Below, piece after piece: positions 2,767-24,586 of a stretch of DNA of 26,194 nt. The position numbers and the translations under genes are program-made. This DNA is from a virus: UHGV virus genome UHGV-0110177; one strand, written 5' to 3'. Numbering within the stretch: the stretch's first letter is position 1; each line of letters opens with the position of its first letter. The notes beneath the pieces are model-generated. The model was given only the letters and a program-made list of their open reading frames with translations. It searched no databases and had not been told where the DNA came from.

Positions 2767-3109
2767 TCCAGGCCTCCAGCTCGTTCTGAATCTCTTCGTC
2801 GATATCGTCATTGGTCGCATCTTCATTCAGGAAGTCGCGCGCTTCTTTGAGATATTTTCCCCGGCGCAAGCGATACCAGAGAGAGAGAGAGAACTCATAG
2901 CTCCAGCAGTTCGGCGCGCCGTCATAGTCAAATTTGGCGTTGTTCTCAGCCATGCTCTCAACCATGTTGTAAGCAGTGTTGAGCGCCGCTTCGCGGATAT
3001 ACCCGCGCAGATCACGCTTGCGCCAGTACGGGTTTACTTTCGAATCGCAGAGTGGTTTAAATTCGACTTCCCAGCGGCGAATGCAGCGTGCATTTAATGA
3101 TTTGCTCAT
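2759..3109 (-). CDS. Hypothetical phage protein (116 aa)
   Basis: ORF in early-left operon directly downstream of recT. Confidence 0.55.
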   Translation of the reverse strand: MSKSLNARCIRRWEVEFKPLCDSKVNPYWRKRDLRGYIREAALNTAYNMVESMAENNAKFDYDGAPNCWSYEFSLSLWYRLRRGKYLKEARDFLNEDATNDDIDEEIQNELEAWND

Positions 3110-3143
3110 GTCATTACCGGGAGGGCGAACCCTCCCGCCTCCC

Positions 3144-4145
3144 TTAGCCCACGTATTCCGGTTTCATGTCGTCCAGGGTGATGCGGAACTGGTCATACAG
3201 TTCGTCGCCTAAGTGCCGTTTCGCTGTGTGAAGAGTGCCTTCAGCTTTAGCAAACAGTTCCGCCGCTTCTGGTTCTCCGGGATTCGACAGGGAGTTGATA
3301 GCGGCCTCAACTTTATTTTTGGCGTCAACAAGGTAGTAGCGCTTCACCGCTTTATTTTTCAGCTCAGTGAACAGCGCAGTTCCCAGCAACGCTTTCTGCG
3401 ACTCAATATCAGCGCGGATAGCTTTGGCCTGGTCAACAGAGCTTGCTGTGTCAATGCGGTCGCGTAGGTCGTCGGCAACGGCATCAACGTTAGTTGCTGA
3501 TTCCTGCGCGGTAGCGAGGATGCCTGTTTCGCTGGTGATCTCTTCAACAGTCATTCGCGGGGTTGGATTTATTTCGCGCTCAACGCGTTCCTCCAACTCA
3601 TCAGGGGTGTAGACCCCCAAAATCGCCCATGGTGTGTAGGCACGAGCCCAGTATTTCACTTGCAAGTAGCCAATTTGCTGCTTTGGGTTACTTTTCCACA
3701 GGGGCGAGTTTTTGATTGTTACTTCCGAAACGCAGAGCCATTCATTCCATGTAATGTCTTTTTCTCCGCTAATAATTGCGCCAACACGGCACTCCATCAG
3801 ATCCTTTTCGCCACGATATTCATAATGGAATCGCCCCCGTATTGCGCCGGTGGCAGTCAGTACCGCGCTAACTAACTGAGCTTCATATCCTAGAGTGCCA
3901 TTTATAACGTGTGTTTTCTGACCGACTACGTAGGGGTCCATACCCCATCGCGCGGCTTGCATGACAATGGCGAGGCAGTCTGATGGCTTACCCTGAAGAT
4001 GTTTGGGCACAGTAGAAATACCCTGGGACATAACATCAGCAATCTTCATCATGCGATCCATGACATCGCCATTCAGCAGTAACGAGCCATTATTCATTGT
4101 GCTGGGTGCCTGCTGATCAATTACCGCTATGTTTCTATTTTCCAT
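3144..4145 (-). CDS. recT: RecT/Bet(Red-beta)-family single-strand annealing protein (333 aa)
   Basis: Recalled similarity to lambda Bet/RecT core (PLWKSNPKQ...VKYWARAY compared with GPWQSHPKR...CARLA); start is 13 nt after recE stop with SD AAGGGGGAA; classic exonuclease-annealase pair. Confidence 0.65.
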   Translation of the reverse strand: MENRNIAVIDQQAPSTMNNGSLLLNGDVMDRMMKIADVMSQGISTVPKHLQGKPSDCLAIVMQAARWGMDPYVVGQKTHVINGTLGYEAQLVSAVLTATGAIRGRFHYEYRGEKDLMECRVGAIISGEKDITWNEWLCVSEVTIKNSPLWKSNPKQQIGYLQVKYWARAYTPWAILGVYTPDELEERVEREINPTPRMTVEEITSETGILATAQESATNVDAVADDLRDRIDTASSVDQAKAIRADIESQKALLGTALFTELKNKAVKRYYLVDAKNKVEAAINSLSNPGEPEAAELFAKAEGTLHTAKRHLGDELYDQFRITLDDMKPEYVG

Positions 4146-4157
4146 GACTGTTCCCCC

Positions 4158-7049
4158 TTATGCCTGTACGCGCAGCGCTTCAAGGCGGCGCACATCAAAA
4201 TCGTTGAGTTCTTCGGCGTAATCTTCGGTAATCGGCGCTGGCCATTCGCCAGTGTCGAATCCGTTCGCGATGGCGCGCATTGCTTTGCGGTATTCCAGCA
4301 TGCCGAGTTCAAGCAGTTCTTCGGATGCCTCGATGATGGCGATCCAGTGGTAGTTCTCGTCTTTGTTGACGAATATCCAGAAAAACTGGTCCAGCGCTGC
4401 GGTTTCGCAGTACATGGCAGCGCTCAGGTGATAATCGCGATCGATGATTTCCCGGTGCAACTTCGCGCGCAGACCTTCCTGCTTGATATTCCACATGCTG
4501 ATAGTCTTCAGGTCAGCGCCGATGCGCAGGCCGCCCATGTCAATTTCAAGGTCAGGGCGCACGCGGATTTCCAGCCCGGTTTCCTCATCAATACCGAAAT
4601 AGCTCACCTCTACGGCGCGGTTCGGATGCGTCAGCAGCTTCCCGGCGGTCGGGTGATTCAGCAGCGCTTTCTGGATGGCCTGCGCGGTGCTCAACTGCTG
4701 GCGGGTAACCAGAATTTTATCGCCGGGGTTTTCGCGCCATGCGTCAAGCAGCTCGTCGGCAAACACTGTTTCAGGTTTGACGGATTTCACTGCCTGAATC
4801 AGATCCGCTTTGGTGCCGGATACTTTCAACGGCTGTGGCTTCTGTGCTTCCTGTGCAACGAGATCAGGATTGATGATCGCCAGTTGCTCAAGCAGCGCGT
4901 CACGGCTTCCGCTGGTTTTAACCGGCGCGGGCAGGGTGGCGTTGTATTCTTTGATGCAGGCCTTCATTGCCGCTGCTGTATGCTTAGTCCCGTTTTCGAT
5001 GCGCTGGAACTCTTCAGGCAATAGCTCATATGACGCATACGCTTCGTCGACGGATGCCCCAAGCGGTAATGGCGCGGGCAGGGTGGCGTTGTACTCTTCC
5101 AGCAACGCTTTGATATCGTCTGCGGTGAGTAATGCCGGCAGGCTGGCGTTGTGTTCGTCGATAACCGCGCGGATCGTCGCTGTCGTCGTGAGCGCGCCTT
5201 CCGAGATTTCCGGTTCGATGCTGAACTCTTTTTCCAGTTGTTCAGGCTGTAACGCCAGCGCGTGCACCAGGTTCCCCATATCCAGAACTTTGGTGCGTTC
5301 TTTCTGGATGGTTTTGGATACGTGGCGCGCTTCGAAATACATCAGACTTACACGTGCATCTTTGACCATTGTCGAACTGATGCCATTCGCCGCGTGATAT
5401 ACCTCGTTCGGTACGCCTTCATAACGCCCCGGCTCGAAGTATTCCGGCCACACTGACGCTGGCTCTGGTTCTTCCTGTTGCATTTCCGGCACGTTTTGTT
5501 GCGTTTCTGGCTCAGAATGGCTTGCAGAATCGTTGTTCTGGCTCACTTCCGGCTGATGGTGGTCTACATCGGCTTGCTCGCCGGTATCTGCCTCTTCACC
5601 ATTCCCCAAATCACTTTCGCTTGCGAGCAGCGCATCACCAGTCTGTTCTTCATTACCGTCAGTTTCTTGAACCTGCACATCGGCGGCGTCCTCATTTTCC
5701 GTTTTTTCTCCCTCATTTGAGGCGGCGTTGTAGTCTTCATGAACCCACTTCGGATCGTTAGGGTCACTGATACCTTCAACGTAATCACCGCGCGCAGCTG
5801 CGAGTTGTCGGTTTACTTCTTCAACGGATGGTTCATCCTGTCTTACTGGCGTTGGCATAGGCATGGACGAACGTCCGCAGGCAATATCAACGACAAGCGG
5901 ATCGGGATTGGCGTGGTCAGTTTCTGTCAGCACCTTATTCAGGTACTCGCGGTGGCGAAACGGGGATTTGTATAGTTCATCTGGTGTGGTTTTTACTGTT
6001 GCAACGATGCATGCGCGGGAATAGTCCAGACCACCAGGCATTGACACGAACAGTTCGCGCGTTGCCAGCCACTCAGGGTCGTCAACTGCGTTCATGATTG
6101 AGTTAGCCTTTAGTTCGATCTGCAATGGCAGAGAATAAATATCAAATTCGTACTGACGCGCCAGCAGGCCTAAGGCTATTTCAAATTCAAGACCGAGAGT
6201 GGTCTGGGGCATCTTGCGATCGGATGCAATTCCGCCGCCAGCGTTCGCGCCGCTTTCAGTACGCTGAATAGCTGATACACGATTACCTTTGCACCACTCT
6301 TTAACGAGCAACCCGCGATCAATATGAGGGGTATCGAACCATGTTTTCAGAAACTGGATAACGCTTGCCAGCTCAGGGATTTTGCCATCAGCAGGAAACA
6401 CGTTCTTAACGGCATTTACCGCTTTATGGATATCGTGTTCAATGGCCTTTTTGAATGGTTCAACATTCTCAGCCGCAAGTAAAATGTTCTGGACATATGA
6501 GTTATCAGTGTCCATTTCCAGAGCGAGAATTGCTTTTTTCTGCTCTGCATCGACATGATAGAGATACTCGCCATCGCCAATATGTTGGGCCAGTATGCGA
6601 TGACGGAAGGGCATCGTTGCCACAACGGTTAACTGAGGGTGTTCAGGTAGATCGCCATTGTCTTCAGTTGACGCCTGATCGTGCTGGATAATTTCGCCAG
6701 TTTCGGTATCAACACCATCAACGATACGCTGACGGGCGACGGCAACGGCCTCAGAAGAGGGCAGCGTAACACCGGGGATCTGTACCCAGGTCATGTTGTC
6801 TTTGCCGAGCTGGTAGAAATCGCAGAACGTTAAGCTGAGTTCGCCTTCCGGCGGCAGTTCGTTAACGACAGGGAAATTAGTGGCGACAGCTTTAAAATAA
6901 TCTTTCAGCTTTGCGCCGGATTTAATCAGGAGATAATCCAGTGTGGCATTTGCCGATTCAAAATCATCACTGCACCAGAGAACCGCATCTTTTTGTCCTG
7001 ATGATTTTTTTGCTTTGCGGACTAAAAATACAGGATTAGTTCCACTCAT
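4158..7049 (-). CDS. recE: Exodeoxyribonuclease VIII (RecE-like), 963 aa
   Basis: N-terminus from ATG at 7049 (MSGTNPVFLVRKAKKSSG...VLWCSDDFES...DYLLIKSG...KAVATNFPVVN) matches E. coli RecE N-terminus from memory; conserved LNKVLTETDHANPDP...DIACGRSS block; SD GAGGAT upstream; the ORF-track start at 7259 is a 70-codon over-extension. Confidence 0.85.
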   Translation of the reverse strand: MSGTNPVFLVRKAKKSSGQKDAVLWCSDDFESANATLDYLLIKSGAKLKDYFKAVATNFPVVNELPPEGELSLTFCDFYQLGKDNMTWVQIPGVTLPSSEAVAVARQRIVDGVDTETGEIIQHDQASTEDNGDLPEHPQLTVVATMPFRHRILAQHIGDGEYLYHVDAEQKKAILALEMDTDNSYVQNILLAAENVEPFKKAIEHDIHKAVNAVKNVFPADGKIPELASVIQFLKTWFDTPHIDRGLLVKEWCKGNRVSAIQRTESGANAGGGIASDRKMPQTTLGLEFEIALGLLARQYEFDIYSLPLQIELKANSIMNAVDDPEWLATRELFVSMPGGLDYSRACIVATVKTTPDELYKSPFRHREYLNKVLTETDHANPDPLVVDIACGRSSMPMPTPVRQDEPSVEEVNRQLAAARGDYVEGISDPNDPKWVHEDYNAASNEGEKTENEDAADVQVQETDGNEEQTGDALLASESDLGNGEEADTGEQADVDHHQPEVSQNNDSASHSEPETQQNVPEMQQEEPEPASVWPEYFEPGRYEGVPNEVYHAANGISSTMVKDARVSLMYFEARHVSKTIQKERTKVLDMGNLVHALALQPEQLEKEFSIEPEISEGALTTTATIRAVIDEHNASLPALLTADDIKALLEEYNATLPAPLPLGASVDEAYASYELLPEEFQRIENGTKHTAAAMKACIKEYNATLPAPVKTSGSRDALLEQLAIINPDLVAQEAQKPQPLKVSGTKADLIQAVKSVKPETVFADELLDAWRENPGDKILVTRQQLSTAQAIQKALLNHPTAGKLLTHPNRAVEVSYFGIDEETGLEIRVRPDLEIDMGGLRIGADLKTISMWNIKQEGLRAKLHREIIDRDYHLSAAMYCETAALDQFFWIFVNKDENYHWIAIIEASEELLELGMLEYRKAMRAIANGFDTGEWPAPITEDYAEELNDFDVRRLEALRVQA

Positions 7050-7176
7050 TGTTTTATCCTCACTTCGTGTAGAATGGAGGCGCCTTAATGGCACCTCGGT
7101 TTTACCAAGTAGAATGTCCGGTTCGCTTTGGTCGGTTAGACCGGACAGGGCAAGCCCACCTCGTGTGGGCTTTTGC

Positions 7177-7464
7177 TTAATGAACGGTGCTGAAAACTTT
7201 TTCTGAGTAATCGAGTTTGTAGCTGCGGTAGTTGCCAAACCCGGCGTTATCGCCATCACTTACTTTCACGGACAACATTGAAATTGCCTCTACAGCACAA
7301 AGAGGACAGTCGAACTTGCCGAATACATAGCCACCGTCAAGAATGACCGTGACCGCGCCCGTTTCGGCTGAATGAATAACGCCTGATACTTTCTTCTCGC
7401 AGTTGAATACAGCCAATTCTTTATTCACTGCTTTCAGGTTCATTTCGATTTTTACGATTTCCAT
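7177..7464 (-). CDS. Hypothetical phage protein (95 aa)
   Basis: ORF in early-left operon. Confidence 0.5.
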   Translation of the reverse strand: MEIVKIEMNLKAVNKELAVFNCEKKVSGVIHSAETGAVTVILDGGYVFGKFDCPLCAVEAISMLSVKVSDGDNAGFGNYRSYKLDYSEKVFSTVH

Positions 7465-10467: not shown

Positions 10468-10701
10468 ATGAACGGATTAGAAAAGGCCATTCAGAAAGCT
10501 GGCACTGCCAGCAACTTAGCCGCAAAGCTAGGCATTAAACCGATGTCGGTTAGTCGCTGGAAAACACGATACAAGGGCGTCGTGCCAGCCGATCGTGTTT
10601 TACCAATTTTCAACGCAACTGGTGTTACCCCCCATGAATTGCGCCCTGATCTGTATCCGAACCCCACGGACGGATTACCAGCGCAGGATGCGAGGGCGTA
10701 A
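10468..10701 (+). CDS. Cro/YdaS-like HTH protein (77 aa)
   Basis: HTH (ASNLAAKLGIKPMSVSRWK); first gene rightward of operators; SD GGAGA. Confidence 0.75.
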   Translation: MNGLEKAIQKAGTASNLAAKLGIKPMSVSRWKTRYKGVVPADRVLPIFNATGVTPHELRPDLYPNPTDGLPAQDARA

Positions 10702-10703
10702 CC

Positions 10704-11246
10704 GTGCATTCAATTTCATTTCAACAAAATACCGGGTTTCCTCCAGCCACGATGATAAATCGCAATCAGCCTGATCCGGCGGATAAGCATGACCAGATTC
10801 GGGCTGCCGTTCGTGCGTGGTCGGCATCGCTGGACAACCAGGACGTAGTCGCCGGGATCATCGTTGAGGAATGGGAACGGCAGGGCGGCGCCGGGCTGGA
10901 TTTTCCTGACGACCTGAGCCGTAAGCGGCAGAAGCTTTTCCGCTGGCTGGACAGCGATACCGGATATGCGCGCGAAAACATCCGTCAGCTGACTCCGGCG
11001 ATCCTGGCTGTTTTGCCGCTTGAGTTTCGTGGTCGCCTTATCGGACAGGATTGTTTCATGACGCGTTATGCAGCGATGGAGAAGGAAATCAGCGAGGCGA
11101 AACAGGCCGTAATGCTGAATGCGCCAAAGCATCAACTGGTGAAAGAGGTCAGGGAAGGGATTGAGCATCTGCTGAATATGTTGCCGGGTGATGCTGTCGT
11201 TCAGGTTCTGAGTGGTATCGCGGCCATAGCGCCGGGTGTCATGTGA
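10704..11246 (+). CDS. YdaT-family protein (CII-position regulator), 180 aa from GTG
   Basis: Recalled similarity to E. coli YdaT core (EEWERQGGAGL...LTPAILAVLPLEFRGRL compared with EEYLRQGGGEL...LIPAILAILPRELRHRL); SD GAGGG before GTG. Confidence 0.65.
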   Translation: MHSISFQQNTGFPPATMINRNQPDPADKHDQIRAAVRAWSASLDNQDVVAGIIVEEWERQGGAGLDFPDDLSRKRQKLFRWLDSDTGYARENIRQLTPAILAVLPLEFRGRLIGQDCFMTRYAAMEKEISEAKQAVMLNAPKHQLVKEVREGIEHLLNMLPGDAVVQVLSGIAAIAPGVM

Positions 11247-15241: not shown

Positions 15242-15465
15242 TGGCTAATTCATTACTGGAAACCTGCAACAACTGGCAGATTCGGCGCGCTGAGTTACTG
15301 GCTCACAACCCTGACATAGCAATGACAATCGATCAACTGGACTCTCTGATTGAGCGCACTGTGCGCTCTGCAATTGAGATAGCGCACCGCGTGGATTGGG
15401 ACTTTCGTGAAGCTGAGCGGCTGGCGAAAGAAGTTGCCGCCGCTGGCATCGGTAAGGGGGAGTGA
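15241..15465 (+). CDS. Hypothetical protein (74 aa)
   Basis: ATG overlaps upstream stop. Confidence 0.5.
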   Translation: MANSLLETCNNWQIRRAELLAHNPDIAMTIDQLDSLIERTVRSAIEIAHRVDWDFREAERLAKEVAAAGIGKGE

Positions 15466-15468
15466 GTT

Positions 15469-15636
15469 ATGTGGGTATTAATTATCTGGATGCTTGGCGG
15501 CTACAACTGGAATAGCCCCTCAATCGCCGCTCAGGAATTTAACTCAGAATCAGCGTGTCGCGCAGCCTTTGCTGAAGTTAAAAAGATAAACGACGGTGAA
15601 ATACCTCTTCGTGGCGCATGTACGCCAAAGGACTAA
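15469..15636 (+). CDS. Small protein with hydrophobic N-terminus (55 aa; MWVLIIWMLGGYNW...)
   Basis: Not in track (<60 aa); SD GGGGAG 7 nt upstream; fills gap between flanking genes. Confidence 0.4.
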   Translation: MWVLIIWMLGGYNWNSPSIAAQEFNSESACRAAFAEVKKINDGEIPLRGACTPKD

Positions 15637-15639
15637 CCC

Positions 15640-16107
15640 ATGACCACTATTACCAGAGAACAGGCGCAAAAAATTATTGATGCAGCCGACGAGGTGATTA
15701 CCGCGCTGGCCGGAACAAATGAGGATGTACACCCTGAAAGCGACAACATGCTCCGTCTGTGGGATGACCTGAATGACCGTTACGCACCACCAGAAGTTGT
15801 ACGAGAGCTGGCGCGTATCGCGCTGGCATCGCTTACCGCTGAGCCTGTGGCATATGCAGACCCGCAGTCATTCGACAATTTCAAGAGCATGGGCGGGAAA
15901 AACGCTGCGTGCACTAAAGAGTGGATGTGGCGAGATTCCGGTGAGGATCTGATTCCTGTCTACACCGCCCCGCCAGCGCCGGCAGTACCAACATTCGACG
16001 AATGGCTGGAAATTCGCGGTAACAAGCCGCTTGGATGGGTCAAAGATGCCATGCGTGAATCGTATGACGCCTGCCGCGCCGCAATGCTTAACGGAGGTAA
16101 ATCGTGA
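15640..16107 (+). CDS. Hypothetical protein (155 aa)
   Basis: ORF in operon. Confidence 0.55.
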   Translation: MTTITREQAQKIIDAADEVITALAGTNEDVHPESDNMLRLWDDLNDRYAPPEVVRELARIALASLTAEPVAYADPQSFDNFKSMGGKNAACTKEWMWRDSGEDLIPVYTAPPAPAVPTFDEWLEIRGNKPLGWVKDAMRESYDACRAAMLNGGKS

Positions 16108-16619
16108 AAACTATCCAGTTATCAGAGCGTGAACTTTCCATGATTTTCAGCATGCTGACGCCGCCGTACTGCGCTGAAGATATTCGCTCTGACGAGTTCA
16201 ACGAATTGCGTAATAAAGTCTTTTACGCTCTGCGTGATGCAAGGAACGATGAACTTGTAAGTAATCGTGATGAGTTGCCTGAAGAAAAAGGCGCATCTCT
16301 CCAACTGCGTAATTTAATCCGGCGGCGCCATGCTGAATGGTCTGATGCCACGTTCGGAAATGTTGGTCCTGTTGGTCCACTTAAGCACCTGTCGAAAGAG
16401 GCGCTGGAAGCCGCAGCAGAACCTGACGACCTCAGCGAGTGGGCTGATATGCAGTTCCTGTTATGGGACGCCCAGCGGCGCGCTGGTATCTGCGATGGTG
16501 AAATCACAGCAGCAATGGAAGAAAAGCTGAAAGTGAATATGGCGCGCCAGTGGCCAGAACCGAAAGACGGAGAACCACGGCTGCACATCAAAGCGGATCA
16601 ACAGCAGGAGCACAAGTGA
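16104..16619 (+). CDS. Protein with DUF550-like (dATP/dGTP pyrophosphohydrolase-like) C-terminal region, 171 aa
   Basis: Motif HAEWSDATFGN...LKHLSKEALE...EWADMQFLLWD recalled as DUF550-like; GTGA-coupled start with SD GGAGGT. Confidence 0.55.
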   Translation: MKTIQLSERELSMIFSMLTPPYCAEDIRSDEFNELRNKVFYALRDARNDELVSNRDELPEEKGASLQLRNLIRRRHAEWSDATFGNVGPVGPLKHLSKEALEAAAEPDDLSEWADMQFLLWDAQRRAGICDGEITAAMEEKLKVNMARQWPEPKDGEPRLHIKADQQQEHK

Positions 16620-16691
16620 CGGACTGGCCTACTGCGTTCATGATTGTTGGTGTGGCGTTTGCTATGGCCGCAATGGTTATATGGGGGTGAG

Positions 16692-16919
16692 GTGATTACT
16701 TATCTTTTTTTCGGTTTCCTTATTGTTTGCACTCTGTTTTGCATGGTGATGTTATGGCGGGTTGCCAAGGTGGCAGAGTGGCGACTCAAGGCCCTCGAGA
16801 TGAGTGCTGATGATTATCAGGCGCTACCTGAATTTCATAAGATGCTGTGGATGATTTGGATATGGAGGCTAGAACGCTTCCCGAGATGTAATAAGCGGGC
16901 ATGGTCGGAGGTGAAGTGA
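16692..16919 (+). CDS. Possible small membrane protein (75 aa from GTG)
   Basis: Hydrophobic N-terminus; start uncertain (TTG/GTG); competing 24-codon ORF in another frame at 16616..16690. Confidence 0.3.
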   Translation: MITYLFFGFLIVCTLFCMVMLWRVAKVAEWRLKALEMSADDYQALPEFHKMLWMIWIWRLERFPRCNKRAWSEVK

Positions 16920-17080
16920 TGGATCAACTTTCGCAATACACCACTAACAGGATTATTGAACTGGAAAATCTGCTGCTGGTGGATGTTGAGGAAACGGTCT
17001 GGCCAGCGGAAGTGAAAATGGTTTTTTCTCAGGTTGAGAACGCCGGGGATCTCCCGGCGCACCATAGTTTTCATGGCTGA
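16919..17080 (+). CDS. Possible small protein (53 aa)
   Basis: Not in track; SD GGAGGTGAAG; 1-nt overlap with upstream stop; 3' end overlaps convergent lipoprotein gene by 10 nt. Confidence 0.3.
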   Translation: MDQLSQYTTNRIIELENLLLVDVEETVWPAEVKMVFSQVENAGDLPAHHSFHG

Positions 17081-17475
17081 CCTTCGAAGTTCCATCTTGC
17101 GGAACCCATATTAAAGTAAACTCTCCGATCGGTAAACGCCGGGAATGTCGCTCTTTCAGAAGCTTTTTGCAATGCAGCGCAATAATCTTTGTCACCACCT
17201 TTCACGATAAAATTTTGCAGGGTGCCATCGACTTTGAAATCCAGATGAGCGTTACATTTTTTACCATTCCAGGCATGGGGCTCTGTAAGTGCTGCGTCCA
17301 AAGCTTTTTTTATTCTGGATGAATACCATCCATATATATCCTTATCCGACACTTTACCCGAACTCTTATATTCGCATGATTCCATTGCATTTTCTTTCTG
17401 ACAGCCTGTAGGTGCAAGAGGGGAGCAACCTGCAATGGTTAATGTCACCACAATCAACATTAAAAATTTTATCAT
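17071..17475 (-). CDS. Lipoprotein (signal peptide with lipobox IAGC), 134 aa, reverse-oriented accessory gene
   Basis: N-terminus MIKFLMLIVVTLTIAGCS; opposite strand to surrounding operon; AT-rich upstream region. Confidence 0.65.
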   Translation of the reverse strand: MIKFLMLIVVTLTIAGCSPLAPTGCQKENAMESCEYKSSGKVSDKDIYGWYSSRIKKALDAALTEPHAWNGKKCNAHLDFKVDGTLQNFIVKGGDKDYCAALQKASERATFPAFTDRRVYFNMGSARWNFEGQP

Positions 17476-20379: not shown

Positions 20380-20661
20380 ATGGCTATTTATCGAAATAGG
20401 AAATGGCTCGCTGCCGTTGGTCAGATTGAGCGTTGCGTTCTATGTGGGGCGTGGGGGACGCAAGTAGCGCACCGCAATGAAGGTAAGGGGATGGGGCTTA
20501 AGGTTGATGATTGTGCAACTGCTGCGATCTGCGTGACCTGTCATTCAGAGATTGATAACGGGAAAAACCTCTCTCGTGATGAGCGTCGGCAGTTAATGGA
20601 TCGCGCTATCGTGCTTACTGTCATTGAGATAGTCCGCCGTGGGCTGGTGGTGCCAGTATGA
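20380..20661 (+). CDS. Cys-rich hypothetical protein (CxxC...CxxCH), 93 aa
   Basis: ORF in nin-like region; putative zinc-binding motifs. Confidence 0.55.
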   Translation: MAIYRNRKWLAAVGQIERCVLCGAWGTQVAHRNEGKGMGLKVDDCATAAICVTCHSEIDNGKNLSRDERRQLMDRAIVLTVIEIVRRGLVVPV

Positions 20662-21011
20662 AAATTTACGACATCACGCCGATCGGCAAGCCCAGAATGA
20701 CCAGGGCCGACAAATGGAAAACTCGACCAGCGATCATGCGTTACCGGGCATTCTGCGATGAAGCACGCCTGCGCAAAATTCATCTGCCGGAGTCCGGCGC
20801 CCACGTCACGTTCGTTATGCCGATGCCAGCGAGCTGGAGCAAAAAGAAGCGAGAGCAGTTCAACGGCAAGCCGCACCAGTCAAAACCCGACTGCGACAAC
20901 ATGCTTAAAGCACTAATGGATGCCCTGTTTGATGATGATTCCAGCGTCTGGGATTGTCGCATCACGAAGCTATGGGGCGAGAAAGGGCAGATCATCGAGG
21001 AGGCAAAGTGA
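20658..21011 (+). CDS. rusA: RusA-family Holliday junction resolvase (117 aa)
   Basis: Motif KPDCDNMLKALMDAL resembles the RusA catalytic D-x-D-N block; typical position before Q. Confidence 0.7.
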   Translation: MKIYDITPIGKPRMTRADKWKTRPAIMRYRAFCDEARLRKIHLPESGAHVTFVMPMPASWSKKKREQFNGKPHQSKPDCDNMLKALMDALFDDDSSVWDCRITKLWGEKGQIIEEAK

Positions 21012-21143
21012 AGCCCGAAGTTATTGAGTCTCTTCGCTGGCGCTGGCTGCGTCTTTGCATTTATCGCTACCGGGGATCTTTTCCGGTGGCATACCGCATC
21101 CTTCGCAATTACATCCGCATTGAAGCAAAACGGGAGCATCGAA

Positions 21144-21941
21144 ATGAAGCTTGAGTCCTTACCAAAATATTTTTCGCCTAAATCCATGATGCCCGGCGCT
21201 GTTCCATGCGGTATTTCAGCAGATACGCTGACTATTACTGACGTAATGGCATCCCTCGGGCTACTTTCCGCAAAAGCAGCGGTGGGTATTGAATTGTATC
21301 TGGCAAAAGCCGGGGTTTTATCTTCAGACAATATCATTGCCTACATCAAGAAGCTGGCAGAGCAGCGCGCAGAACGGCACGGATCGCTGCGGAAAATGGA
21401 AGAGAGTGAACGATCAAAATTTCTCGGTATTCTGGCGCGGTATGTTTTCCGCGATTATTCCCTCAGCGCGGCAAGCCTGGTGACGTGCAGTAGCTGTCAT
21501 GGCGCTAAATTTATTGATGCTGAGGTTTTCACGAACAAGGTTACTTACCCGGATGGTAAGCCACCAAAATGGGTAAAAGATACGAAAGGCATTTCTCCTT
21601 CTGACTGGGAAGTGTGGAAATCAGTACGTGAGCAAGTGCGCGTCGTGTGTAAGACGTGCGATGGTAAAGGCCATGTGAAAAACGAATGCCGTTGCCGGGG
21701 GCGCGGAGAAATTCTCGATAAGAAAAAATCAGAGTTGCAGGGCGTTCCGGTTTATAAAAAATGCCCGAGATGCAAGGGAAGAGGTCACCCACGCCTCAAA
21801 GATACCGAGATTTTTAAAGCGCTGGGAGTAACGGAAATGGTATGGCGGTACAACTATAAACAGTTTTTCGATCGGCTGGTGGAGCATTGCCATATTGAGG
21901 AATCCTATGCAGAAAAGGTTCTGGGAAACGTGACTCGATGA
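21144..21941 (+). CDS. Late-gene antiterminator Q-like protein (265 aa) with CxxC zinc-binding motifs
   Basis: Position immediately upstream of promoter plus short terminated transcript and lysis genes; CKTCDGKGH...CRCRGRG...CPRCKGRGH; SD GGGAG 7 nt before ATG. Confidence 0.6.
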   Translation: MKLESLPKYFSPKSMMPGAVPCGISADTLTITDVMASLGLLSAKAAVGIELYLAKAGVLSSDNIIAYIKKLAEQRAERHGSLRKMEESERSKFLGILARYVFRDYSLSAASLVTCSSCHGAKFIDAEVFTNKVTYPDGKPPKWVKDTKGISPSDWEVWKSVREQVRVVCKTCDGKGHVKNECRCRGRGEILDKKKSELQGVPVYKKCPRCKGRGHPRLKDTEIFKALGVTEMVWRYNYKQFFDRLVEHCHIEESYAEKVLGNVTR

Positions 21942-21958
21942 CCGGCATAATTTAGCTA

Positions 21959-21987
21959 TTGCAAAATTAACGGAAAATGGCTAATCT
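21959..21987 (+). promoter_or_regulatory. Candidate late promoter (pR'-like): -35 TTGCAA, 17-bp spacer, -10 TAATCT
   Basis: Hexamers read directly, 18 nt after Q stop. Confidence 0.5.
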
Positions 21988-22035
21988 GATTCCAACGATG
22001 GGTTATTACGCCTGTAACGTTACAAGAATTAAGAA

Positions 22036-22060
22036 CCTCGCCTCGGCGGGGTTTTCTTTT
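22036..22060 (+). terminator. Rho-independent terminator (tR'-like): CCTCGCC-tcg-GGCGGGG then TTTTCTTTT
   Basis: About 66 nt downstream of the candidate late promoter. Confidence 0.7.
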
Positions 22061-22241
22061 ATGGATTCCCGACGCCAATAAGACAAAGTGCGGGGAGTGT
22101 TGCGGAGCCTACATGTTCCAGCCGTCCGCAAAAGCTCACATGGGCAGGACCACAATCTGATACCGCGATAGCTTTTGCTGATCGCGCCGGAGCGGTAACC
22201 GGCAACAATTTAAGCCCCGGTTATTGCCGGAGCTTTCTGTG

Positions 22242-22499
22242 TTAGATATAAATCTCACTCTTACTTAGTGTGGTAAAAGAGGTTTTGGTTGGCGAGTTTA
22301 GTTGAAGATCTGAAATCAACCCGCCAACTTGCTGTTGACCCGATGTAATTACGTAAACATTTACTGTCTGATTTACATAAGTACTGAAATTTCCTGTAGC
22401 ACCCTGACTGATTTGGTGTAGTTGACTAGTCAGATTGTGGCGTTGAACTTCAAACTTAAAGTAAGCATCGTTTTGATGTTGAACACGGAAAATGTACAT
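22242..22499 (-). CDS. Hypothetical Q/N/S/T-rich protein (85 aa), reverse-oriented gene between Q and lysis genes
   Basis: SD AAGGAT before ATG; only ORF in ~650-bp gap. Confidence 0.45.
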   Translation of the reverse strand: MYIFRVQHQNDAYFKFEVQRHNLTSQLHQISQGATGNFSTYVNQTVNVYVITSGQQQVGGLISDLQLNSPTKTSFTTLSKSEIYI

Positions 22500-22623
22500 G
22501 CTTTATCCTTTTTTGTTGAAAAAAATATTAACGGCATTTTGCAATAAGCCTTTAGTTTTTTTTAACAAACTCCAGCCAGGGTATCTTCAGCCGCAGAGCT
22601 GACATTGCCACACCCTCACATTG

Positions 22624-22650
22624 CCAGCCTGTCGCTGGCTTTTTTATTTC
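22624..22650 (+). terminator. Rho-independent terminator (GCCAGC-ctgtc-GCTGGC then TTTTTTATTT) ~100 bp upstream of holin
   Basis: Read directly. Confidence 0.65.
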
Positions 22651-22751
22651 AGGCTCACGGGAATCAATCACTACGTGCTTTGTTGAAAATCCAGCCCGAG
22701 GGCCTGACCCTACAACACACAGCTCCCGCATTTACCGCGAGGAGAGAGACT

Positions 22752-23024
22752 ATGAAGATGGACGAAAGATACAGCAACGCGACATACGGCAGCGCTGGTC
22801 TTGCGGCTTTCTTTGCCAGCCTGTCATTGCAGGACTGGGGCTTCATCATTGGCGTCGCTTTCAGCATCATCCTCGGCGTCCTGACATACAGGCTCAATAA
22901 GCGTGAGCAAATGAAGCGCACGAAGATACTGCAGGACATTCTGAACAAGACTGATTCAAGCAACCCATCTGCTACAGCCAAAGTTCTCGCCGATCTCGGA
23001 CAGAAAGCACCGAAGGAAATCTGA
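22752..23024 (+). CDS. Holin, two TM domains, pinholin-like (90 aa, MKM dual-start motif)
   Basis: Resembles phage 21 S21 pinholin pattern; SD GGAGAGAGA; precedes SAR endolysin. Confidence 0.7.
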   Translation: MKMDERYSNATYGSAGLAAFFASLSLQDWGFIIGVAFSIILGVLTYRLNKREQMKRTKILQDILNKTDSSNPSATAKVLADLGQKAPKEI

Positions 23025-23512
23025 TGAACAGCACCATGCGAAATAAAATTGCTGCCTCCATCGGTGGCGGTGCGATTGCTATCGCAACAGTCATGCTGTC
23101 AGGTAAAGATGGTCTTGAAGGTCGAGAATATGTGGCCTACCGAGATGTTGTCGGAGTGCTGACCATCTGCGATGGCCACACCGGATCCGACATAATCCCC
23201 GGAAAGCGATATACCGATAAGGAATGCGAAACACTAACCCGGAAAGATTTAACGCGTATTGCCGCGCAGGTTGATCCACATATCAAAGTGCCGACTACTG
23301 AAACTCAACGAGCAGCGATTTACTCTTTCGCGTACAACGTTGGCGCTTCTGCGGCCATCAACTCAACACTGCTGAAAAAACTCAATGCCAAAGAATACGC
23401 AGCGGCATGCGAAGAATTAAAGCGTTGGGTGTATGCCGGTGGTAAGAAGTGGAAAGGCCTGATGAATCGTCGCGATGTTGAGTATGAGGTTTGTACCTGG
23501 AGCCAGAAATGA
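23024..23512 (+). CDS. SAR endolysin (T4-lysozyme-like muramidase with N-terminal signal-anchor-release domain), 162 aa
   Basis: Gly/Ala-rich N-terminal TM ([18 protein letters not shown]) followed by catalytic E...D...T ([23 protein letters not shown]). Confidence 0.85.
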
Positions 23513-23976
23513 GCAGGTTAACCGCAATCATCATCGCTTTTGTCGTCTGCATCATCGTATCTCTTGGCTGGGCTGTTAACCACTACCGCGATAACGCCAT
23601 CACCTACAAAGACCAGCGCGATAAAGCCACTGAGAAACTCAGCCTGGCGAACGCCACCATCAAAGACATGCAGACCCGCCAGCGTGATGTTGCTGCGCTG
23701 GATGCCAAATACACGAAGGAGTTGGCAGATGCGAAAGCTGAAAATGATGCTCTTCAGCGTAAGCTTAATAATGGTGGTCGGGTGCTCGTCAAAGGCAAGT
23801 GTCCAGTGCCAGCCTCAACCGAAGCCGCCAGCACCTCCAGCTTGGGCAATGATGCCACCGTCGAACTCTCTCCAGCTTCTGGACGCAACGTTCTCGGTAT
23901 CAGAGACGGAATCATCAGAGATCAGACAGCACTGAGAACCCTTCAGGAATACATCAATACGCAGTGCCTGAGGTAG
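23509..23976 (+). CDS. Rz: i-spanin Rz (155 aa)
   Basis: Strong recalled similarity to lambda Rz ([14 protein letters not shown]...[26 protein letters not shown]); ATGA overlap with endolysin stop. Confidence 0.85.
23729..23935 (+). CDS. Rz1: o-spanin Rz1 lipoprotein embedded in +1 frame of Rz (68 aa)
   Basis: [19 protein letters not shown] lipobox plus Pro-rich [11 protein letters not shown] as in lambda Rz1; SD GAAGGAG. Confidence 0.75.
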
Positions 23977-24091
23977 AGCTCCGGGGAAGTTTTTTACTAT
24001 GTACTGAAGATAAATCACATTGTTTTAGAGTCGCTTTTGGTAATATAACCTATTATTTATAATAGATTTGTGATGCTTAAGGAGCGATAAA

Positions 24092-24265
24092 ATGAAAAAT
24101 GAACAGTTGGTCCGTAAAGCCGAGGAAGATATTTCTGCCCTCATTACGAAAAAGATTGCGGAGCTAAAAAAGAAAACAGGCAAAGAAGTATCTGAGATCG
24201 TGTTTGTTCCACGTGAGATAATGGCCGGTCTTGATGGATACGAAGTAAAAATTAAGTTGATATAA
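24092..24265 (+). CDS. Small hypothetical protein (57 aa; MKNEQLVRKAEEDISALITKKIAELKKKTGKEVSEIVFVPREIMAGLDGYEVKIKLI)
   Basis: Not in track; strong SD AAGGAG 7 nt upstream; AT-rich promoter-like region upstream; preferred over antisense track ORF 24025..24300. Confidence 0.55.
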   Translation: MKNEQLVRKAEEDISALITKKIAELKKKTGKEVSEIVFVPREIMAGLDGYEVKIKLI

Positions 24266-24421
24266 AAGCGAGTCGGCGTAGTTGTATCTTTTGCGTCCAA
24301 TCAAAGGCCTGTCGACGAATGATGTATGAGATAATGTGGGGGCCTATTGCGCCGTTAAATTTTGGTCAAAAAATGTGCGCTTTATGGTACAATGAAGCCC
24401 ATTCACAAAAGGCCAACCATC

Positions 24422-24586
24422 ATGTCGTTCTTCGATTATGCAATGCAGCGTGTTGGGCTTGTAGCCAATATGACTGTCACGTGTCCAATATGCGGACATA
24501 AATCAATTCAGTCGACCACTAAAGTACGCCAGCAACAGGCGTTACTTTGTCCTGAATGTAAATCACTCTTTGTCATTCACAGATAA
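24422..24586 (+). CDS. Small zinc-ribbon protein (54 aa, CPICG...CPEC)
   Basis: Candidate -10 TACAAT upstream, terminator downstream; start uncertain (ATG 24391 or 24422). Confidence 0.45.
   Translation: MSFFDYAMQRVGLVANMTVTCPICGHKSIQSTTKVRQQQALLCPECKSLFVIHR

Follow-up and report, generated by a model that had tools for sequence, protein, structure and literature searches.

An antisense small gene with a predicted sigma-28 promoter between Q and holin of a lambdoid prophage

We describe a small gene that lies antisense to the late operon, in the interval between the antiterminator gene Q and the holin gene of the virus genome UHGV-0110177, whose 26,194 nucleotides (nt) are referred to here as the window. 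Judged by its sequence, the window is a Gifsy/SEN34-like lambdoid prophage and the interval from Q to the holin is its late-operon leader. The explanation that we find best, and which we consider reasonably probable, is that this leader carries a moron: an antisense gene of 85 amino acids (aa) that is transcribed from a promoter of the flagellar sigma factor FliA (sigma-28) and that ends at a hairpin doubling as a terminator on the late strand. An earlier note, made from the sequence without database searches, had described in this gap a tR'-like terminator, a minus-strand open reading frame (ORF) of 85 codons and a second plus-strand terminator, with the holin following. To within a few bases, all of these elements are where it placed them. 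What the present analysis adds is a third hairpin (T2), a conserved protein family with a fixed antisense position, and a conserved promoter motif of the sigma-28 type.

A conserved small gene on the minus strand

The gene occupies positions 22242–22499 on the minus strand. Its substitution pattern, its family and its predicted fold describe a soluble, ferredoxin-like protein of 85 aa with an isoelectric point of 8.1 and no hydrophobic segment. Q, N, S and T make up 41% of its residues, in agreement with the richness in these residues that had been noticed before. A Shine-Dalgarno sequence, AAGGA, can be read at 22506–22510 (minus strand), 6 nt before the ATG, and a sequence of the AAAGGAG type stands at the equivalent place in all relatives. 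The closest of these, P0001, is 93% identical and is found in the prophage L003 at the same place and in the same orientation. The two genes differ at 22 of 258 nt, and 16 of the 22 differences fall on third codon positions (binomial P = 1.8e-4). The ratio of non-synonymous to synonymous substitutions (dN/dS) is accordingly low, 0.083, in the frame of the small gene, compared with 1.4–1.7 in the other two minus-strand frames. On the plus strand the frames give about 1.5 or are broken by 4–13 stops; one stop-ridden frame, which is in codon register with the gene, gives 0.10.

P0001 was the only relative returned by a word-indexed homology search, and the family emerged only when HMMER was run exhaustively. 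This search, over 1.84 billion representatives, gave full-length homologues of 83–93 aa with 28–54% identity, and a profile search brought in three more members. Together they form a family of proteins of about 85 aa that are 27–54% identical over their full length. The named sources are Citrobacter portucalensis, Pantoea ananatis, Yersinia enterocolitica and Erwinia rhapontici, where the entry is always a "hypothetical protein", and further members come from metagenomes. Eight residues (R5, V6, F14, S31, G33, V46, V48 and E82) are invariant in the alignment of 13 sequences. The large repetitive proteins P0004, P0011 and P0012 were set aside as homologues, their matches being short, spread over multiple places and driven by composition. 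L004, with 46% identity over 37 residues, was set aside as a partial match, with an E-value that refers to no more than the candidate stretches. Genome contigs gave nothing in a protein scan and a DNA-pattern scan, one of each, and a conserved 29-mer was not found in viral contigs.

The family is previously unannotated and uncharacterised. Searches of the 85-aa protein and its relatives against Pfam, PHROGs, NCBIfam and PADLOC gave nothing significant (the best PHROG E-value of any member was 0.012), a Pfam scan of ten family members returned no match for any of them, and sequence searches of the PDB with the single sequence and with the profile returned none either. Literature searches turned up neither this gene family nor any gene driven by FliA in the slot between Q and the holin. 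AlphaFold2 gave a poor model when only two sequences were supplied (predicted local distance difference test, pLDDT, 47), which was set aside; with the 13 sequences the pLDDT rose to 96 and the predicted template modelling score was 0.85. The predicted fold is beta-alpha-beta-beta-alpha-beta(-beta), a generic ferredoxin-like domain, and as modelled it is too generic to give a biochemical function. Small domains of this kind include PII-like/CutA proteins, ACT domains, domain V of EF-G and the C-terminal domain of YigZ, and no ligand-binding or T-loop signature can be claimed for the 85-aa protein. It likewise does not show the structural match combined with a family-sequence or ligand-site signature that would mark a member of the PII-like or ACT proteins. 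The homology and structure search that the earlier note had proposed thus delivered an unannotated family with a confident fold, and no match to a known family.

The probability that this frame is open by chance, in a leader that is non-coding, is close to nil. It is indeed short, its composition is biased and it matches no database family. These features are outweighed by the dN/dS of 0.083, the full-length family, the Shine-Dalgarno sequence in all members and the pLDDT of 96, which refute this reading and lead us to conclude, from the pattern of sequence conservation, that the ORF is a real gene under strong purifying selection. The earlier note had named its own counter-case, a conserved non-coding interval in relatives with no conservation of the ORF, and this fails on the same dN/dS, family and fold.

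The gene keeps not only its sequence but also its place. In all 12 lineages examined it is antisense and lies directly before the holin and/or after Q, whichever flank survives. At ten loci (L003, L005, L007, L009, L010, L012, L013, L016, L018 and L020) it immediately precedes the holin and lies on the other strand, its start codon being 152–295 nt away from that of the holin. At L015 the lysis genes have been lost and Q is still the neighbour, the small gene being antisense to it, and on L025 and L026, short contigs that keep only the Q side, it runs antisense to the adjoining Q-side genes. The partners themselves change from locus to locus. On the Q side we find PF03589, PF06323, PF06530/DUF1133 and one 240-aa protein outside these families; the holins belong to the Pfam types 2_1, 2_3, 3_1, 3_3 and 8; and the endolysins are a lysozyme, GH108, a peptidase M15 and one 244-aa endolysin that was left out of the family scan. 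The exact window protein is present on 14 contigs, where it precedes at least three different lysis cassettes, and in these contigs the block from the late promoter PR' to the holin start travels together at 95–97% identity. For most of the distant members, no DNA similarity to this region of the window was detectable.

A predicted FliA promoter

Upstream of the gene, at 22528–22554 on the minus strand, lies a predicted FliA (flagellar class 3) promoter, TAAAGGCT-N11-GCCGTTAA, which agrees with the consensus at 13/16 positions and whose -10 element ends 28 nt before the ATG. The consensus used for scanning was TAAAGTTT-N11-GCCGATAA, with fixed 8-mers and a cut-off of 12/16. When the upstream regions of the family were placed side by side, a shared TGCCGATA motif appeared about 25–30 nt before the ATG, with TAAAG 15 nt further up, and these two together make up the FliA class 3 consensus. 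The motif is present in 12/12 lineages, where it scores 13–15/16, has a spacer of exactly 11 nt and a -10 element that ends 22–32 nt before the ATG. Shuffling of the 100 nt upstream gave P <= 1.4e-3 per locus at each of 10 loci. Apart from the -35 and -10 elements and the Shine-Dalgarno sequence, nothing was conserved when the upstream regions were aligned with MAFFT, and the remainder cannot be aligned.

The motif is the sole match with three or fewer mismatches in the 26 kb of the window, and 19 matches of at least 13/16 occur in 318 kb of the loci (both strands), about 11 of which we attribute to promoters of the small gene. As a positive control, 14 kb of the Escherichia coli K-12 prophage Qin gave a single match, which is the validated flxA FliA promoter, 23 nt from its ATG. 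For tar, ycgR and flxA, the chromatin immunoprecipitation sequencing table of Fitzgerald et al. (PMC4183435) lists validated FliA promoters that have this form too.

Two further observations were made in the window. A weaker sigma-28-like match, TAATGTGG-N11-GCCGTTAA, was seen at 24332–24358 (plus strand), just upstream of a 74-aa Cys-rich ORF (24362–24586). Its score of 12/16 equals the cut-off of the scan and the window holds eight matches at this level, so that it is probably due to chance. A 14-nt inverted repeat (22512–22525 / 22556–22569, 93% complementary) brackets the predicted promoter of the small gene almost exactly. Its right arm is less well kept in L003, and the repeat may be an accidental symmetry of A- and T-runs.

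Several points weigh against the picture of a FliA-driven moron with a fixed place. The promoter is a sequence prediction, and in the window it carries three mismatches, including an A to T change in the -10 element (GCCGTTAA). A match of equal quality arises in 13% of shuffled windows, so that the window alone would be unconvincing and it is the recurrence across lineages that makes the case. In addition, a TAnnnT hexamer within several of the -10 elements offers a possible site for sigma-70. The minus-strand terminator of the gene, the hairpin T2 described below, has a poor U-tract in the window. The family is rare, with about a dozen clusters at 90% identity among 5.8 billion sequences. Finally, the fixed position could reflect a slot that tolerates insertions, combined with recombination at linkers that carries modules between phages.

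These points bear most directly on the possibility that the gene is an ordinary moron with a weak sigma-70 promoter, or one that is otherwise unrecognised, and that the sigma-28-like motif is a coincidence or the site of another factor. We give this little credence. In its favour, the window motif taken by itself is not significant window-wide, TAnnnT overlaps the -10 element at 7/10 loci inspected by eye, and spurious promoters are frequent in AT-rich DNA. Yet 12/12 lineages keep TAAAG in the -35 element, GCCGA in the -10 element and a spacer of exactly 11 nt, amid neighbouring positions that are randomised. A -35 element resembling TTGACA is not seen at a distance of 16–18 nt, a scan of 21800–22900 with the sigma-70 consensus found no promoter, and the scan of the control region picks out only the validated flxA promoter. 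Dependence of the small gene on FliA, as predicted from the motif, is the probable case.

The leader, its cargo and its terminators

The leader runs in the order Q, PR', tR', a second hairpin (T2), the cargo, a third terminator (T3) and the holin, with 810 nt between the end of Q and the start of the holin. Q (21144–21941, plus strand) encodes a Cys-rich protein of 265 aa of the zinc-binding type (PF03589 Antiterm, E 7.6e-49; phrog_127, E 2.4e-90). Its DNA is about 91% identical to the counterpart in Salmonella phage SEN34, which is annotated there as Q-like. By direct reading of the sequence we propose TTGCAA-17 nt-TAATCT at 21959–21987 (plus strand) as the candidate late promoter PR'. It is too weak to be detected by the sigma-70 consensus scan, and in L003 it is kept as TTGTAA-17-TAACCT despite the insertion of a 179-aa gene between Q and PR'. 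At the far end of the leader follow the genes of a 90-aa holin (22752–23024, plus strand; phrog_1350 holin, E 2.2e-32; a weak match to PF16080; annotated as holin in UPF_BP1), the endolysin (23024–23512, plus strand; PF00959, E 1e-41) and the Rz spanin (23509–23976, plus strand; PF03245, E 2.8e-30).

The cargo segment comprises the small gene and its promoter region and extends on the minus strand from 22241 to about 22566, as delimited by base composition and by breaks in similarity. Its guanine-plus-cytosine (GC) content is about 0.36–0.37, or 0.35–0.40 across the segment, versus about 0.5 around it; for the small gene alone the value is 0.37 versus 0.47–0.51 in the 2-kb flanks, and it is likewise low in most relatives. 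The left edge is sharp: starting within Q, the phages SEN34, SPN3UB and FSL SP-016 match the window with 94–96% identity as far as 22240, beyond which they diverge, and they lack the small gene. On the right, similarity resumes at 22566/22567 in several E. coli prophages and at 22586 in UPF_BP1. The cargo itself found no match in a phage collection (blastn, tblastn) or in a plasmid collection (tblastn).

The stretch that follows, from 22567 to 22751 (plus strand), is a pre-holin leader of common backbone that includes T3. Its counterparts, namely the leader before the holin in UPF_BP1 and the segment that separates tRNA cargo from holin in E. coli prophages, are 80–90% identical to it, and it looks, on these similarities, like a shared recombination linker. 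E. coli prophages with the same pre-holin leader carry genes for tRNA-Asn, tRNA-Thr and sometimes tRNA-Arg in the slot instead. For example, L023 (1344–1499) and L024 (1270–1502) both have tRNA-Asn and tRNA-Thr, L024 has tRNA-Arg in addition, and in both the tRNA genes are followed by a segment 80–90% identical to window positions 22566–22748, with T3, before two different holin families.

Alignment of the Q-to-holin interval across relatives, which the earlier note had suggested, thus exposed the boundaries of the cargo along with the fixed antisense position, and the proposal of a cargo slot holds: the low-GC segment is absent from SEN34, SPN3UB and FSL SP-016, which are otherwise 91–95% identical, and tRNA genes take its place in E. 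coli prophages. As for the hallmarks of a moron, the segment is present or absent among close phages with sharp edges and deviates in base composition. It has a conserved promoter motif of its own, and behind the stop codon stands a hairpin that has a weak U-tract and is common to the backbone. The best reading of these sequence features is that the cargo is a moron of an undescribed family, consisting of one antisense 85-aa gene with a strong ribosome-binding site of its own and a predicted promoter.

Relatives carry further cargo as well. In L003 the gene between Q and PR' (10561–11100, minus strand in the locus) is low in GC, encodes 179 aa with an N-terminal hydrophobic segment, is co-oriented with Q and gave no Pfam match; the early region of L003 also contains a gene for a TonB-dependent receptor (15256–17334). 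In the Pantoea-type locus L016 a 136-aa gene (2812–3222) is placed between Q and the small gene in the orientation of the late operon; its N-terminus resembles that of a signal peptide or lipoprotein, and Pfam again gave no match. Two oppositely oriented cargo genes can thus share the slot.

Three hairpins punctuate the leader. T1, the tR'-like intrinsic terminator found by the consensus scan (plus strand), has a 10-bp stem and a T-run (hairpin 22032–22055, T-run to about 22063; dG -15.4 kcal/mol, z -2.9) and is conserved in SEN34, Gifsy-2, L003, L018 and L020. T2 is a hairpin with a 9-bp stem at 22212–22240, which can form on both strands. On the late (plus) strand it is terminator-like, with a dG of -12.9 followed by TTTCTGT; on the minus strand it has a dG of -15.2 kcal/mol and a z of -5.1 with a weak U-tract. 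It sits 2 nt from the stop codon of the small gene and is likely to be the terminator of this gene on the minus strand. T2 is also present in SEN34 and thus part of the backbone. T3, the second plus-strand terminator that the earlier note had seen, was found by the consensus scan and spans 22623–22650 with a 6-bp GC stem and T6 (hairpin 22623–22639, T-run to 22650; dG -10.9, z -3.5). It is terminator-like on the late strand only, as the minus strand has no T-run after the hairpin. The T3 hairpin is kept with a different stem sequence in L003 (GCCAGC/GCTGGC versus CCGC/GCGG) and in UPF_BP1. All of T1, T2 and T3 combine a hairpin and a T-run between the late promoter and the lysis genes, as a tR'-type terminator does. 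Their z scores, from -2.9 to -3.5, mark folds clearly more stable than those of shuffled sequence, and the consensus scan counts 5 terminator-like sites in the region versus 1.2 +/- 0.9 in shuffles.

In the relatives that were mapped, a late-strand terminator hairpin mostly lies between Q and the small gene, often no more than 30 nt from the stop codon. In L007, L012, L015, L016 and L010 such a hairpin is the sole terminator between the two genes and is flanked by A- and T-runs, and it appears from this sequence arrangement to be a bidirectional tR'. A late-strand terminator is found between the promoter region of the small gene and the holin in 6/11 mapped loci, and the holin-side terminators vary in number and strand among the loci of the family.

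The earlier note had read this arrangement as unusual transcriptional insulation, and had contrasted it with most lambdoid phages, in which the lysis genes would come close after tR'. For relatives the contrast does not stand: even without the ORF, SEN34 and UPF_BP1 have two late-strand terminators each, and their holin still lies about 280 nt from tR'. We also regard it as quite improbable that the three terminators are a dedicated insulation built around the cargo. The cargo does lie between the late-strand terminators T2 and T3, and the 6/11 loci just mentioned have a terminator between the promoter of the small gene and the holin. However, T1 and T2 are found at 95% identity in the cargo-free phages SEN34, SPN3UB and FSL SP-016, T3 recurs in E. 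coli prophages and UPF_BP1, whether tRNA cargo precedes it or not, and the holin-side terminators are not constant within the family. Since T1 and T2 belong to the SEN34-type leader and T3 to cargo-free pre-holin leaders, the terminators are part of the phage backbone and not specific to the cargo.

Between T1 and T2 extends a conserved non-coding spacer of the SEN34-type late leader, about 150 nt long (22064–22211, plus strand) and recognised by its similarity to cargo-free phages. It lies within the segment 21900–22240, which is about 95% identical in SEN34, SPN3UB and FSL SP-016 and, as judged by eye, about 90% identical in L003. No plus-strand ORF of at least 30 aa was found in it past 22081, and it might serve as a second leader RNA or a processing site. 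An Rfam search of the interval gave nothing at gathering thresholds, and permissive E-values gave only sub-threshold matches driven by the terminator hairpins. The inverted repeat CGCGAT-N11-ATCGCG that had been singled out in the earlier note does exist, at 22164–22186. As a meaningful element it was rejected: it is one of 31 inverted repeats (6-bp minimum, 821 nt) and is not kept in L003, and we regard it as due to chance.

As for the wider context, the DNA of the window shows mosaic similarity to Salmonella, Escherichia and Enterobacter phages. A full-length match to the small RNA isrB of Salmonella islands (RF01386) was found at 7087–7175 (plus strand) with 74.7 bits, the gathering score being 35. 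This match, which overlaps a minus-strand ORF of 1033 aa (4158–7259) at the 5' end of the latter, suggests a Gifsy-type prophage with a Salmonella-like host. Positions 2942–6642 of L019, an ENA metagenome scaffold (ERZ28599772), are 100% identical to window positions 20500–24200, so that the phage of the window, or a twin of it, is present in a public metagenome assembly.

Proposed working and comparison with known systems

If the predicted promoter is what it appears to be, the prophage probably expresses the small gene when its host is motile. In the lysogen, transcripts from PR' would stop at tR', and the leader would otherwise be silent. Once the flagellar regulon of the host is switched on, RNA polymerase carrying FliA would transcribe the small gene away from the holin, alongside the late flagellar genes, and the soluble, ferredoxin-like product could then act on the host in its motile state. 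With the promoter aimed away from the lysis genes and T3 lying between promoter and holin, host-driven transcription would be kept out of the lethal lysis cassette. Upon induction, polymerase modified by Q would read through all three terminators and cross the small gene antisense, which should silence it. A flagellar or chemotaxis function, or the exclusion of phages that depend on the flagellum, may be guessed as targets. These guesses draw only on the predicted regulon and on the precedent of phage cargo that remodels flagella (PMC13418256).

A different weight is placed on the same arrangement if the antisense transcription itself is what matters, such that FliA-driven polymerase, or pairing of the RNA with the late leader, delays or gates the lysis genes according to motility, with the peptide being secondary. 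This idea fits the antisense orientation of the gene just before the holin, which is strictly conserved even among unrelated Q and holin families, and it fits the end of the gene, which coincides with a late-strand terminator hairpin or lies a few nt from it. We nevertheless consider it improbable, because strong purifying selection and the confidently predicted fold show that the protein itself is selected, and because the DNA of distant members is not conserved, which leaves no conserved RNA–RNA pairing beyond the trivial full complementarity. Moreover, Q-modified polymerase comes, as known for lambda Q, from a strong late promoter, and a weak minor-sigma promoter is unlikely to hinder it.

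One may go further and speculate that the gene is a position-locked "motility sensor" in lambdoid prophages of motile Enterobacterales, where FliA reads out a small effector antisense and the prophage acts in flagellated cells. Possible actions would be to block superinfecting phages that depend on the flagellum, to tune flagella or chemotaxis, or to bias induction and lysis timing by transcription convergent on PR'. We think that this wider proposal is rather unlikely to be right. If true, it would constitute a previously unrecognised regulatory link from the flagellar cascade to the late/lysis switch of the phage.

Returning to the moron with a predicted FliA promoter, the overlooked ORF is the founding example of a family of small proteins that keeps its position, orientation and predicted promoter in Salmonella-like prophages and in those of Citrobacter, Pantoea, Yersinia and Erwinia. 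Should the dependence on FliA prove true, it would be a simple case of a prophage wiring its cargo to a specific developmental programme of the host, and one would have to ask what benefit a motile lysogen draws from it, such as a defence against flagellotropic phages or an altered motility. The locus also illustrates how cargo under a host-controlled promoter can be placed beside lethal lysis genes, namely pointing away from them and between terminators of the backbone.

The interval between Q and the holin is a classic home of phage cargo such as Shiga toxin (Stx). The concept of the moron reportedly goes back to Hendrix and colleagues; among lambdoid phages, bor and lom of lambda belong here, as does the Stx or tRNA cargo in the interval from Q to S. 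Like these, the small gene is a self-contained extra gene of deviant GC content, present or absent among close phages, and it stands between the backbone signals of the Q-to-holin slot. Stx and tRNA cargo is co-oriented with the late operon and boosted by Q. The small gene differs in being antisense, with a predicted minor-sigma promoter: in the window and in every relative it runs opposite to Q and the lysis genes, with which Stx-type late cargo would be co-oriented. It further differs from known morons in keeping its position and orientation over a family divergence down to 27% identity.

A phage-encoded link to host flagella has a precedent in the TldR/fliC_P loci, which are flagellar remodelling cargo made up of an RNA-guided repressor and a flagellin (PMC13418256). 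These are likewise cargo of temperate phages of Enterobacterales that is wired to the flagella of the host, which makes them, as a concept, the precedent for a moron linked to motility. They share neither proteins nor loci nor mechanism with the small gene, and the flagellar link of the 85-aa protein is its predicted promoter alone.

The cryptic prophage Qin of E. coli K-12 offers likenesses in both respects, position and promoter. Its small genes ynfU and cspF run opposite to Q (ydfT) and the holin (essQ), and ynfU lies directly upstream of the holin. Their proteins are unrelated to ours, being zinc-binding and of the cold-shock type, respectively, and that part of Qin contains no sigma-28 motif of at least 12/16 except at flxA. 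The latter is a prophage gene whose dependence on FliA has been validated and which plays no part in motility (PMC4183435 and its reference 31). It is located in the early/immunity-side region of Qin and not between Q and the holin, and homology of the 85-aa protein to FlxA was rejected (hhalign probability 0.1%; none of the ten family members scanned matches PF14282 of FlxA). What the two share is that a small prophage gene is preceded by a sigma-28 promoter of the same form, TAAAGATT-N11-GCCGATAG in the case of flxA, at a comparable distance from -10 element to ATG, 23 nt in flxA versus 22–32 nt in the small-gene family.

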